Shown in pieces: positions 4,736 through 59,853 of a DNA stretch of 64,000 nt (position 1 is its first letter; every line of letters begins with the position of its first letter). This DNA comes from Cyanobacteria bacterium UBA6446 (GTDB taxonomy: Bacteria; Cyanobacteriota; Vampirovibrionia; Gastranaerophilales; Gastranaerophilaceae). Location of the stretch: NCBI GenBank assembly GCA_002438405.1, contig DJOE01000004.1:4492-68491 (forward strand). Reading direction: 5' to 3'. The position numbers were made by a program, and so were the translations under genes. A model generated the notes under the pieces. That model did not search any database. It was not told where the DNA came from and was given only the letters and a program-made list of their open reading frames with translations.

Positions 4736-5004
4736 TCGTGTTATGGATTGTTACGTCACTCTCCTTATAATGCCTCGCATAAAACGTGCCTCCGAGCCTG
4801 CCGACTAGTCCTGCAGACAGCCAATCGATTCGGCAGGCTACTCCGCACTCCGCTCGGCTTACACAATGACATGACTTTTTTACATGTCATTACGAGGAAA
4901 CAAGCCGAGCAAATTTTAGAGCAGTCTATACGGAGTGACGTAGTAATCTTGAACACTGAATAAAGACATTACCCACCCTAGCGCTCAGCCATAAATGGGC
5001 GAGG
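4736..5004. repeat. GC-rich composite inverted-repeat element (copy A of a mosaic repeat family)
   Basis: It has imperfect 24-nt terminal inverted repeats (4738-4761 vs 4933-4956, 19/24). An 89-nt module (4772-4860) is 82/89 identical to 59075-59163. An 80-nt module (4882-4961) is 74/80 identical to the reverse complement of 57601-57680. The 'ccataaatgggcgagg' tail is shared with 57715-57732. Confidence 0.7.
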
Positions 5005-57369: not shown

Positions 57370-57880
57370 TTAATTATTTTTCCCGTAAATGTGCCTCCAC
57401 TTGTTGGAGGACCGAAATCTTTGATTTCGAGGAGGGGTAAAAAACCATGTCATTACGAACGGGTATAAAGTCATTTGTTGTTGATAATTAAAGATATCTG
57501 CTAGTGTCGTAATCCACAACACAGGGATAATTACAAATGTAGGGGTACACTTCAAGTAAATCCTACTTACATAACTGATACAAGTTAGGTGTTCAATGGT
57601 ATTCCGTGTTCAAGATTACTACGTCACTCCGTATAGACTGCTCTGAGATTTGTTCAGCTTGTTTCCTCGTAATGACATGCTTTTAAGAAAAAAGAAAAGC
57701 TCATTACATTTTCTCCCTCGCCCATTTATGGGAGAGGGTTGGGGTGAGGGTTTATTTTACCATGTCATTACGAACGGGTATAAAGTCATTTGTTGTTGAA
57801 ATCAAAAATATTTGCTAGTGTCGTAATCCATAACACAGGGATGATTACAAATAGAGGTTAGCATTACTATGCGAACACGA
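57370..57880. repeat. composite GC-rich repeat block (copy B of the mosaic family) with an internal ~96-nt direct repeat
   Basis: Direct repeats at 57444-57540 and 57759-57853 share an identical first 41 nt and are roughly 85-90% identical overall by eye. 57601-57680 is the reverse complement of 4882-4961 (74/80). 57715-57732 shares 'cctcgcccatttatgg' with 4989-5004 in the inverted orientation. Confidence 0.7.
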
Positions 57881-57890
57881 TAAATTCTAC

Positions 57891-59018
57891 TTATTTCCCA
57901 ACACAAATACCATAAGTCCCACCCATTACTGTACTCTTAATATTATCCAGTTCCTCATCGTCATATACAACTTTTGCCATAAAAGGCTTAGAACCTTTTG
58001 TAGATGACCAATACATCAATTGAGGAATATCTAAATTCTCTTTTTTAGCTTTTGAGAGTATAGATTTTAAAGTCGCAGCATCTGGCATGGACATATCAAG
58101 TCCATCACAGGCTTTTTTTGCTCCAGCCCACTTATTCGGAGATCCAGTAAAAAAAGATGGCAGTGTTGACCAACCTGGATCATATTTTTCAATATCAGGG
58201 TCATCTAATGTTAGACCATCAAATGATGGTAAAACATATACACAACCAATACCAGAAACCTCAACACCTGCACAACCTTTACTGAATTTTGCTACTTTAA
58301 AACTTCTTATATCATATTGTTTACCATTACGTGCTTCGCTATTTGGACCTTTAAACCCATTCACGTCCATTACAAAGTCAATTGGCGCAGTTACACTTGT
58401 TGTGTATGCAAATTTCTTAGTTCTACCAAAACCAATTGGTAAATCTGCAAAGCTTGGGGTTACTGTATCACCATCACCTATTATTCCTGCATTTGGATTG
58501 TAAGTCATAATTAGTGTTGCACCATCAGCTAAAATTATACCAACATTATCACTTTTGTTGTCTTTTAAATTTAGGTTCTTTCCTGTTTTTGCTTTTGATA
58601 CGTCATAGGTTTCACCATCTGTTGTGGTTACTGTTTTTGTCGGCCAACAATCTGCAATATGCGCTGCATCACATCGTGTACTTATTTTTATATATTTTGA
58701 AAATTCATCTACAAATTCATCTGTACTTGCATAAGTTCTTTCTAGTCCTCCATCTGCTCTCATTAAATCCATGGATTTTGTAATCTTTTGAGCTAAGTTT
58801 GCTTGTGCTTCTGAATTACTACGTTCTGCAATATTTTTTAGCAATGTTGGCATTGTTAGTGCTGCTACCACTCCAATTACTCCGAGGGTGATTAGAACTT
58901 CGGCAAGGGTGAAAGCAAATTTTTTATTCGGAGTTACACCGCTGAAAACCTCTCTACAAGCGGGTTTTAGATTACCCCCCCCCCCCTTGAAAACCGTTCT
59001 ATGACTGCGTTTTGACAT
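57891..59018 (-). CDS. type IV pilin-like protein with a large C-terminal domain (DUF1566/Lcl-like end)
   Basis: 'KFAFTLAEVLITLGVIGVVAALTMPTL' is the prepilin signal plus helix. The ATG at 59018 has an AGGAAG RBS 8 nt upstream. The C-terminus 'KWAGAKKACDGLDMSMPDAATLKSIL....LMYWSST....F.AKVVY.......K....GGTYGICV' resembles the DUF1566 pattern. Confidence 0.75.
   Translation of the reverse strand: MSKRSHRTVFKGGGGNLKPACREVFSGVTPNKKFAFTLAEVLITLGVIGVVAALTMPTLLKNIAERSNSEAQANLAQKITKSMDLMRADGGLERTYASTDEFVDEFSKYIKISTRCDAAHIADCWPTKTVTTTDGETYDVSKAKTGKNLNLKDNKSDNVGIILADGATLIMTYNPNAGIIGDGDTVTPSFADLPIGFGRTKKFAYTTSVTAPIDFVMDVNGFKGPNSEARNGKQYDIRSFKVAKFSKGCAGVEVSGIGCVYVLPSFDGLTLDDPDIEKYDPGWSTLPSFFTGSPNKWAGAKKACDGLDMSMPDAATLKSILSKAKKENLDIPQLMYWSSTKGSKPFMAKVVYDDEELDNIKSTVMGGTYGICVGK
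58975..58986 (-). repeat. G12 homopolymer (C12 on the plus strand) within the pilin-like ORF leader
   Basis: Direct count: 'attaCCCCCC CCCCCCttga'. On the coding strand it encodes K-G-G-G-G-N at codons 11-16. Confidence 0.95.
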
Positions 59019-59074
59019 TTTTCATGCTTCCTTTCTTTTGTTATGCTTAACACACTGACTTTTGTGTTTACTGC

Positions 59075-59163
59075 GCCTCGCATTAAACGTGTCTCCGAGC
59101 CTGCCGACTAGTCCTGCAGACAGCCTATCATTTCGGCAGGCTGCTCCGCACTCTGCTCGGCTT
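59075..59163. repeat. 89-nt GC-rich nested-hairpin module (copy C), in the predicted 5' leader of the pilin-like gene
   Basis: 82/89 identical to 4772-4860. It contains the nested inverted repeats CCGAGC...GCTCGG and GCCTGCCGA...TCGGCAGGC. Confidence 0.8.
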
Positions 59164-59169
59164 GTTTTT

Positions 59170-59198
59170 ATTATACAAGATTTTTTGAACATGCGCAA
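59170..59198 (-). promoter_or_regulatory. sigma70-like promoter upstream of the pilin-like gene
   Basis: Minus strand: TTGCGC, 17-nt spacer, TATAAT. The predicted start site falls at the edge of the 89-nt module, about 145 nt before the ATG. Confidence 0.4.
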
Positions 59199-59220
59199 GA
59201 TGGAGGTTAAACATTAACCA

Positions 59221-59853
59221 CTAAACAAAAGATACAACTTCATCAAAAGATTTTCTTAATTTTTTAGTCACACGAGGTTTATCTTCATAACCAAGAGTCA
59301 AAATATCTATCAAAACTTGTTTATCATTTAAGTCCAAAGCTTCTTTCACTTTATGTGTCAATGCTGCATCTGTTTTTGTAACTTCATTTGCAAATGCACC
59401 AACAACGCAAGCTCCAACACCTAATTCTTGTGCTTCTAGTGTCATATAAGACACTGCATAAGTAACACCCTCAACACTTCTCAACAAGACTTCGTACTCA
59501 CCAACATTTGACGGATTCAAGACTTTAGAATCCAAATAAGCCTGCATTGAAGCTTTATCTAAGCCTTTTTCTGCCAAGATTTTACCAAATTTTGTATGCG
59601 ACCAAGAATCTAAATCTGCCACAGCACAAATTAAAACTTTTGCATTCCTTACTTGAGCTTGACCACCAGATGCTTCACACAACAAGTCTTTAATTGCTTG
59701 AGTTTTTACTACAACAAATTTCCACGGCTGAACATTGCACCAAGAGGGAGCTAATCTACCAGCTTCAAGAATTTTATTCAAAACTTCATCAGTAATAGGT
59801 TTATCTGAATATTTTCTAACACTTTTTCTTGAAGTAATTGCATTCATTACCAT
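59221..59853 (-). CDS. nitroreductase family protein
   Basis: 'RKSVRKYSDKPI..E.L.KILEAGRLAPSWCNVQPWKFVVV' is the classic NAD(P)H-flavin nitroreductase N-terminal motif. Confidence 0.85.
   Translation of the reverse strand: MVMNAITSRKSVRKYSDKPITDEVLNKILEAGRLAPSWCNVQPWKFVVVKTQAIKDLLCEASGGQAQVRNAKVLICAVADLDSWSHTKFGKILAEKGLDKASMQAYLDSKVLNPSNVGEYEVLLRSVEGVTYAVSYMTLEAQELGVGACVVGAFANEVTKTDAALTHKVKEALDLNDKQVLIDILTLGYEDKPRVTKKLRKSFDEVVSFV

Follow-up and report, generated by a model that had tools for sequence, protein, structure and literature searches.

A poly-G tract in the leader region of a pilin-like gene as a probable phase-variation switch in human-gut Gastranaerophilales

Can a long run of guanines at the beginning of a pilin-like gene act as a genetic switch? 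The question is raised by the window analysed here, a stretch of 64,000 nucleotides from contig DJOE01000004.1 of Cyanobacteria bacterium UBA6446 (Gastranaerophilales). Its minus strand holds an open reading frame (ORF) of 375 amino acids at 57891..59018, which comprises a leader, a pilin-like N-terminus, a conserved body of about 210 residues and a variable C-terminal domain. Codons 11-15 of this ORF lie in a G12 homopolymer tract (58975..58986, minus strand), proposed in a preliminary description of the DNA to be a slipped-strand phase-variation switch. Comparison with related loci supports this reading through a length polymorphism at the same locus, a cassette conserved across the gene family and OFF copies maintained by selection. 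A probability of roughly 0.7 is given here to the tract being a true slippage-driven translational ON/OFF switch, controlling a type-IV-pilin-like adhesin of human-gut Gastranaerophilales (Melainabacteria).

The anatomy of the locus is largely as first described. The tract reads C12 on the plus strand and G12 on the coding strand, and is the sole G or C run longer than 6 nt among the 64,000 bases, the next longest being one G6 and one C6. The surroundings are AT-rich, with 32% G+C in the window, and about 5e-5 runs of 12 are expected from the base composition (G 0.147, C 0.172). The ATG start codon (59016..59018, minus strand) opens a leader beginning MSKRSHR and is preceded, at a spacing of 8 nt, by the Shine-Dalgarno (SD) sequence AGGAAG (59027..59032, minus strand). 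The distance of 30 nt previously given between ATG and tract is approximately right: the tract begins 32 nt past the A of the ATG, with 29 nt intervening. It is read as AAG GGG GGG GGG GGT AAT, encoding K-GGGG-N, and lies upstream of the prepilin signal KKFA/FTLAEVLITLG at residues 32-46, where the slash marks the predicted cleavage site. The coding region of the 35-residue leader peptide extends over 58914..59018 (minus strand); its removal by a prepilin peptidase is predicted from the family rule of cleavage between G or A and FTLxE.

With G12, the ATG at 59018 is in frame with the pilin body (ON) and the in silico product has 375 residues. The claim that gain or loss of one G would shift the frame ahead of the pilin domain holds in silico: G13 yields MSKRSHRTVFKGGGG and a stop, G11 a peptide ending in GGGVI and a stop, termination occurring respectively 0 and 2 codons past the tract. 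Both stops are provided by TAATCTAA (58967..58974, minus strand), which abuts the tract and contains a TAA in each of the OFF frames. The locus thus shows the arrangement of a contingency locus, namely a G tract of at least about 8 nt inside an ORF and downstream of the start codon.

The switch would be void if translation began downstream of the tract, as pointed out in the preliminary description. The tract would then belong to the 5' untranslated region (UTR) and its length would have no effect on the frame. A few paralogues do have a GTG before TPNKKFA, and gene callers assign them an 8-residue leader, MTPNKKFA (P0051, P0066, P0067 and P0091; P and L numbers are our labels for the related sequences). 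Many tract-less family members also have short leaders, for instance MKKGFTLAEV. In the window gene the codon at that position is GTA, no in-frame ATG, GTG, TTG, CTG or ATH is present from the tract to F36, and no suitably spaced SD is found there. The next in-frame candidates, V50 (GTG) and M56 (ATG), both lie within the hydrophobic transmembrane helix, and starting at either would result in the loss of the cleavage motif. The block formed by the SD, the ATG and MSKRSHRASF, upstream of the tract, is moreover the most conserved part of the family cassette described below. Judging from these codons, a downstream start appears unlikely for this gene, and as an explanation of the tract it is hardly credible.

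In order to compare tract lengths at one and the same locus, the syntenic region (LytR / nitroreductase / pilin / DUF3137 / LemA) was retrieved from other samples with the nitroreductase gene as anchor. Ten of the 23 contigs found were examined, seven of which span the tract. It is G12 in L154 and four similar places and in L160 and three similar places, G13 in L155 and in L158 (with one similar place), G14 in L159, G11-A-G in L156, and G11 in L157, where it adjoins a scaffold gap placed at the tract. The length heterogeneity across assemblies that was to be looked for according to the preliminary description is therefore present at this locus, with G11, G11-A-G, G12, G13 and G14 observed. G12, the ON state of the window copy, is the commonest state of the locus, nine window-type contigs agreeing on it. 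Leaving the scaffold gap of L157 aside, the seven contigs, aligned over 5.6 kb, show no real indel other than the tract. Just two single-nucleotide polymorphisms (SNPs) fall outside the pilin gene, a T8 run in the same stretch is invariant and no other homopolymer varies. The tract is flanked by ACGGTTTTCAA-Gn-TAATCTAAAACCCGC, and since the ACGGTTTTCAA flank is specific to the locus, the recorded lengths cannot stem from paralogues. Different lengths are found on both haplotypes of the gene body, which argues for recurrent change. A look-up of the 326-residue truncated call with a window-type body returned the gap-containing L157 only, and no further OFF alleles.

Within the same alignment, about 20 SNPs common to L155 and L159 only are clustered in 165 nt (window about 58518-58681; L154 3673-3836). 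This patch sits in the otherwise invariant N-terminal body, the remainder of the 5.6 kb being nearly identical, and looks like a gene conversion from a paralogue.

Differences in the length of a homopolymer may also be generated by sequencing, polymerase chain reaction (PCR) or assembly errors. According to this explanation a single true tract length exists, and G11-G14 as well as the out-of-frame copies are artefacts. Some of the contigs have indeed a low coverage (5.8x, 13x), the gap in L157 falls exactly at the tract, L156 and L158 differ only by a G to A change inside it, and the 1.41-Mb contig VOFC01002229.1 considered below may derive from long reads. Independent Illumina/SPAdes contigs with 21-66x coverage (L076, L079, L083, L089, L094, L100, L118), on the other hand, also carry mostly out-of-frame tracts of G9-G12, and errors made on an always-in-frame sequence would not place 39 of 42 family copies out of frame. 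The agreement of the nine window-type contigs and the constancy of every other homopolymer in the same contigs equally speak against errors, and an artefact is considered very improbable.

The window tract is not a lone feature. A conserved switch cassette, of which it represents one copy, is carried by a large paralogous family, most members of which are OFF and under purifying selection. The related loci originate from human-gut, yak and roe-deer metagenome-assembled genomes that bear the name Candidatus Gastranaerophilales or Melainabacteria. G tracts in related pilin-like genes, another check proposed at the outset, were found in abundance: a pure G7-G13 tract lies at most 260 nt upstream of the cleavage motif in 40 of the 90 family loci holding the FTLAEVLITLG motif. 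In five more the tract lies further upstream, owing to repeat elements inserted in between. Conversely, 40 of the 49 G runs of at least 8 nt present in 504 kb of related loci are located within 260 nt upstream of the pilin motif, and five others follow the same kind of leader start, placing 45 of the 49 in a pilin-leader context.

An alignment of 17 copies, drawn from paralogues as well as from different assemblies, shows that the unit GAGTTAAGCATAACAAAAGAAAGGAAGTAC-AAACATGTCAAAACGCAGTCATAGAGCGAGTTTC-(G)n is near-invariant at the nucleotide level. The SD region AAAGAAAGGAAG is invariant, hardly any change is seen in the ATG or the first 10 codons, and the post-tract leader exists in a few conserved versions, leaving the tract length as the main variable. 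The near-invariant 5' cassette consists of the SD, the ATG, MSKRSHRASF and the tract. In the commonest leader version, the tract is followed by TAATCTAA, offering a TAA to each of the two OFF frames; TAATCTAA is conserved in the paralogues with a leader of the NLKPACRE type, and the short OFF products seen are MSKRSHRASFGGG and a peptide ending in GGGVI, each closed by a stop. More distant species differ in their leader peptides (MKLLRNVN-, MQKLLSDVKS-, MFERKVLLAEES-) but not in the layout, an ATG being followed by about 8-12 codons and G8-G12 (L008, L022, L025, L032, L035, L037). In a genome of 32% GC, a pure homopolymer that persists between diverged flanks is difficult to account for unless the tract itself is selected for.

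The 1.41-Mb contig VOFC01002229.1 provides a view of many copies at once. It contains at least 15 family copies, of which 12 retain the cassette: nine with a pure G9-G11 tract, one with a G6 remnant, one with an interrupted tract and one with the tract deleted. The conserved ATG is in frame in only two of these 12, L078 (G11) and L129 (tract deleted). Three copies lack the cassette, two having different tract-less leaders and the third, L112, having lost both start and tract. Interrupted tracts were encountered as GGGGGGTGGGG in L084 and as SGEGN or FWRIGN in proteins (P0010, P0025, P0029). Interruption or deletion of the tract, as in L084, L112 and L129, would lock a copy ON or OFF, and resembles the fixed alleles of known contingency loci such as pgtA GGGAGCGGG (PMC5320596).

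The reading frame was then recorded for the 42 tract-bearing copies in which an SD-preceded ATG reads into the tract. The conserved ATG is in frame in 3 copies (ON) and out of frame in 39 (OFF), the modal lengths being G9 and G10. The OFF copies are nevertheless intact: bodies of 290-354 residues are preserved in 33 of 37, and the pairwise ratio of nonsynonymous to synonymous substitution rates (dN/dS) among them is 0.04 over the first 215 mature codons, vs 0.57 over the variable C-terminal domain. Such values imply that the OFF copies are functional genes rather than pseudogenes, and have to be expressed from time to time. Their excess is consistent with a family that has few copies ON per cell.

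Two explanations other than switching would account for the out-of-frame copies. In the first, these copies have no switching role and are silent donors, comparable to pilS, or decaying pseudogenes, variation being produced by recombination into a few expressed loci. The patch shared by L155 and L159 has the appearance of such a gene conversion, and the near-identical 850 nt at the 5' end of the copies would make an ideal recombination substrate. The SD and ATG are however conserved in every aligned copy and a promoter is recognisable in most, unlike in the promoterless pilS cassettes; the full-length bodies and the dN/dS of 0.04 do not suit decaying genes, and the tract remains a pure homopolymer in species whose flanks have diverged. 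Recombination and phase variation are furthermore not exclusive and can coexist. A silent-donor role without switching is accordingly judged unlikely.

In the second explanation, the shift is bypassed during decoding. RNA-polymerase slippage on the G run, or ribosomal frameshifting, would provide some full-length protein from every copy, and the tract would hold expression at a constant low level instead of determining a heritable ON/OFF state. It is well established that transcription can slip on long homopolymers; the best-documented cases are A/U runs, and slippage is less efficient on G/C. A bypass would explain an excess of out-of-frame copies under purifying selection, provided that these copies are still expressed, and the two mechanisms had to be told apart in work on a Bifidobacterium breve pilus (PMC9187656). 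The tract length does differ between samples at one locus at the DNA level, however, and the stops 0-2 codons past the tract in both OFF frames leave little room for recoding signals. Bypass is thus regarded as quite unlikely.

The slippage-driven switch can be outlined as follows. The gene would be transcribed from a sigma-70-like promoter; translation would begin at ATG 59018, downstream of its SD, and cover 10 codons before entering the tract, whose place in the ORF opened by this ATG is given directly by the sequence. Translation would proceed through the rest of the 35-residue leader, and the prepilin peptidase would cut between A35 and F36, as the family motif suggests. Slipped-strand mispairing during replication would add or remove a G. 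With G12, or G12 +/- 3, the ATG would be in frame and the gene ON; in the other two frames, a stop in TAATCTAA right after the tract would turn it OFF. At the window locus, G13 would bring a second ATG, at 59083, into frame and may give a weak third state. As the tract is located in the cleaved leader, a change in the number of glycines (+/-3 G) should leave the mature adhesin unchanged. The majority of the family copies share the 5' cassette and differ in the C-terminal, putatively C-type-lectin-like domain, and independent switching of at least 15 copies would result in a per-cell, heritable and reversible choice of pilus-borne adhesins.

A number of points weigh against this outline. Heterogeneity within a population, reversibility and the ON/OFF effect on the protein are all elements that we infer, together with the transcription and translation starts of the pilin-like gene. 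The tract lengths were read from metagenome consensus assemblies, several of low coverage (5.8x, 13x), and slippage readily affects long G runs during PCR and sequencing; the homopolymer calls of the 1.41-Mb contig would be less reliable if, as may be the case, it is based on long reads. The near-identical 5' part of about 850 nt makes chimeric short-read assemblies possible, with the consequence that ON/OFF calls outside the window locus are uncertain. Finally, the ON fraction of 7% is far below the one third expected from random frames (P about 7e-5) and calls for an added assumption, either selection for few ON copies or a contraction bias in slippage.

The automatic annotation of the family is affected too. 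Many family copies lie at contig ends, a sign that assemblies break in the 850 conserved nt at the 5' end. OFF copies enter the annotation as truncated (for instance P0002, 320 residues; L075, an out-of-frame G12 with a 320-residue ORF) or as N-terminally extended (P0001, P0016), and the family is systematically misrepresented as a result.

The closest known parallels are found in Neisseria. In N. gonorrhoeae and N. meningitidis, pilC1 and pilC2 encode a pilus-associated adhesin and carry, in their 5' coding region, a poly-G tract (Jonsson et al. 1991, as cited in PMC5320596), with lengths between strains of G9-G13 for pilC2 and G11-G15 for pilC1 (PMC5320596, Table 2). As in the present case, frameshifting switches the protein on and off and the tract length varies between strains. 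PilC is however not a prepilin, whereas the protein switched here has a class III (prepilin) leader with the tract inside it; Neisseria has two copies, vs at least 15 on a single contig here, and there is no relation in lineage (Melainabacteria here) or in protein sequence. The second parallel is opa, in which CTTCT pentamer repeats occupy the leader-coding region of 11-12 paralogues (PMC5320596). Both are multigene families of surface adhesins (putative ones here) in which each copy has its own promoter and a hypermutable repeat in the region of a cleaved leader. At any time the majority of copies are OFF, and the variable parts bind receptors in opa and putatively here. They differ in the repeat, a pentamer there and a homopolymer here, and in the proteins, Opa being outer-membrane beta-barrels and not pilin-like; independent switching was demonstrated for opa and is proposed here by comparison. 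The present family shares the organization of an opa-like multigene family, with many paralogues, the majority of them provided with a predicted promoter, an SD, a start and a repeat in the leader-coding region. An opa-like combinatorial variation of the surface, based on type IV pili, can tentatively be put forward at a little less than even odds. It would combine at least 15 pilin-adhesin paralogues in a genome of about 1.4-2 Mb, the majority gated by the cassette, with differing lectin-like tips that gene conversion in the near-identical 5' 850 nt would reshuffle.

Other comparisons can be made with Campylobacter and with a gut commensal. The genomes of C. jejuni and Helicobacter are AT-rich as well (about 30% GC), and G/C runs of at least 8 nt are rare there and concentrated in surface-structure genes; for C. 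jejuni NCTC11168, the figure given in PMC4965091 is 29 loci with poly-G/C tracts of at least 7. The Campylobacter tracts are distributed among diverse genes (capsule, lipooligosaccharide, flagellar glycosylation), while 45 of the 49 runs belong here to one family. In B. breve, production of a sortase-dependent pilus is switched by replication slippage at an intragenic G tract with counterparts conserved across the genus, and the switch was proven by maximum-depth sequencing (PMC9187656). Both B. breve and the present organism belong to human-gut commensal lineages and carry an intragenic G tract in a pilus-type gene. The B. breve pili are, on the contrary, of the Gram-positive sortase-dependent type, in a high-GC genome, at two loci and not in a large paralogous family, and the evidence here comes from the comparison of assemblies instead of maximum-depth sequencing.

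The mechanism proposed is therefore that of a standard translational contingency locus and is not new. The present case differs from the known ones in the prepilin carrier with the tract in its own class III leader, the size of the cassette-sharing family and the lineage. Within the literature searched, no description of this switch was found, nor any paper that connects Melainabacteria, Gastranaerophilales or Vampirovibrionia to phase variation, simple sequence repeats or homopolymers, which is no proof of novelty. Contingency loci are textbook matter for a few host-adapted pathogens such as Neisseria, Haemophilus, Campylobacter and Helicobacter and are little explored in uncultured commensals. 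If the switch is real, a widespread uncultured lineage of the human gut spends a large share of a small genome on one family of pilus-borne lectin-like adhesins, switched stochastically by a conserved poly-G cassette. This would point to needs for fast adaptation in relation to attachment targets, immunoglobulin A (IgA) or phage, and the tract-length phasotype would become a metagenomic read-out of within-host dynamics. Should the opa-like system also be true, an uncultured commensal lineage related to Cyanobacteria would possess a dedicated phase and antigenic variation, implying that host IgA, phage or changing glycan targets exert a strong and fluctuating selection. The switch would also be a warning to annotators, as the majority of the family appears frameshifted or truncated in assemblies without consisting of pseudogenes.

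The protein is read as a pilin-like subunit with a variable lectin-like adhesion head, the fold of the head being suggested rather than proven. The prepilin cleavage/N-methylation motif and the hydrophobic alpha-1 segment (58854..58913, minus strand; F36-T55, FTLAEVLITLGVIGVVAALT) match TIGR02532 with a score of 16.8, above the cut-off of 16.3, and PF07963 with 20.2, just below the cut-off of 21.2. Residues 32-55, KKFA/FTLAEVLITLGVIGVVAALT, have the features of a class III signal peptide, and the motif is invariant across 53 homologues. Of the pilin fold, a long alpha-1 helix packed on a beta-sheet head, the AlphaFold2 model predicts a helix at residues 39-88, but the predicted local distance difference test (pLDDT) stays under 50 over residues 1-72 and 126-247. 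The whole-protein model is confident in the C-terminal domain only. The family is very large, with 4315 proteins at E <= 0.001 among the 8000 candidates scored. In the alignment of the 53 close homologues, residues 35-250 are near-invariant and the last 125 or so are variable.

The variable, putatively C-type-lectin-like C-terminal domain (57894..58271, minus strand; approximately residues 250-375) is modelled with a pLDDT of about 85-92. Its best Foldseek matches in the PDB are TC14, intimin, the C-terminal domain of Legionella Lcl, Bdellovibrio Bd2740 and InvE, all of them C-type lectin-like domains, although the matches are weak (E 0.02-0.9, modest TM-scores). Among the 53 homologues, InvE_AD (PF05689) is detected in 22 and Lcl_C (PF07603) in 20, with a best E of about 1e-5; the window protein itself has no InvE_AD or Lcl_C match at E <= 0.01. 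The model and these matches are suggestive of a putative receptor-binding or adhesion module with a C-type-lectin-like fold. Domains of the Lcl_C/DUF1566 type are known targets of diversity-generating retroelements. Such an element acting on the lectin-like C-terminus was considered and set aside, as the same-locus strains do not differ in the C-terminal region and no sign of such activity was therefore seen at this locus.

The pilin-like gene is solitary and lies outside any pilus operon in the window. No other prepilin motif occurs within the 64 kb, and the 13 neighbouring ORFs scanned are unrelated genes, the neighbours including LytR_cpsA_psr, nitroreductase, DUF3137 and LemA genes. Elsewhere, a Gastranaerophilales genome was reported to encode pilA, pilB, pilC, pilT and pilD (PMC5877343).

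Upstream of the gene, a sigma-70-like promoter is proposed at 59170..59198 (minus strand), with TTGCGC at 59198-59193, a 17-nt spacer and TATAAT at 59175-59170, predicting a 5' UTR of about 145 nt. It was missed in the consensus promoter scan because the -35 hexamer matches at 3 of 6 bases only, and its assignment relies on conservation, an equivalent TTGCAA-17-TATAAT being conserved in paralogues. The consensus promoter/terminator scan found no terminator. Some paralogues have a second homopolymer, a C run, next to the promoter, as C10 on the coding strand just 5' of the -35 hexamer in L078 and as C8 about 45 nt 5' of the promoter in L095; these runs could add transcriptional phase variation.

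The predicted 5' UTR contains a GC-rich palindromic repeat of about 90-100 nt (59067..59163, minus strand), identified by BLAST, of which a second copy lies at 4772-4860 in the window with 92% identity. Many paralogues have this element within their shared upstream cassette, and it looks like a dispersed repeat of the miniature inverted-repeat transposable element (MITE) or repetitive extragenic palindrome (REP) kind. In related loci it is present in both orientations, 3' of genes and even inside the leader ORF (L115, L129, P0092), and contigs L161-L163 end at or within it. Rfam searches of the whole window in gathering mode, and of 58850-59300 by E-value, returned four tRNAs only and nothing credible near the tract or the 5' UTR, so that a riboswitch or other known RNA was rejected. 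A locus-specific 5' UTR structure was rejected as well, the fold being no stabler than that of shuffled sequences (z = -1.3) and the GC-rich block being the dispersed repeat.

A tract of G13 puts the upstream ATG mentioned above (59081..59083, minus strand; MRGAVNTK...) in frame with the pilin body. A GGAG sits 9 nt 5' of it, but inside the repeat stem. Gene callers annotate a 397-residue product from this ATG (P0001), and P0001 as well as L074/L155 are G13. The combination of G13 and ATG 59083 may, from this arrangement, constitute a weak second ON state.

Other GC-rich repeat elements are located downstream of the window pilin gene at 57650-57799, where they overlap a plus-strand ORF containing FMGEGWGEGLF. 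Elements of this type, if translated, read GEGWGEG, GRGVGRGG or GRGLGRGG. Similar repeats are inserted in the leader regions of tract-less family members (P0056, P0087, L023-L047), and the leader region of the family seems to be a hotspot for repeat insertions.

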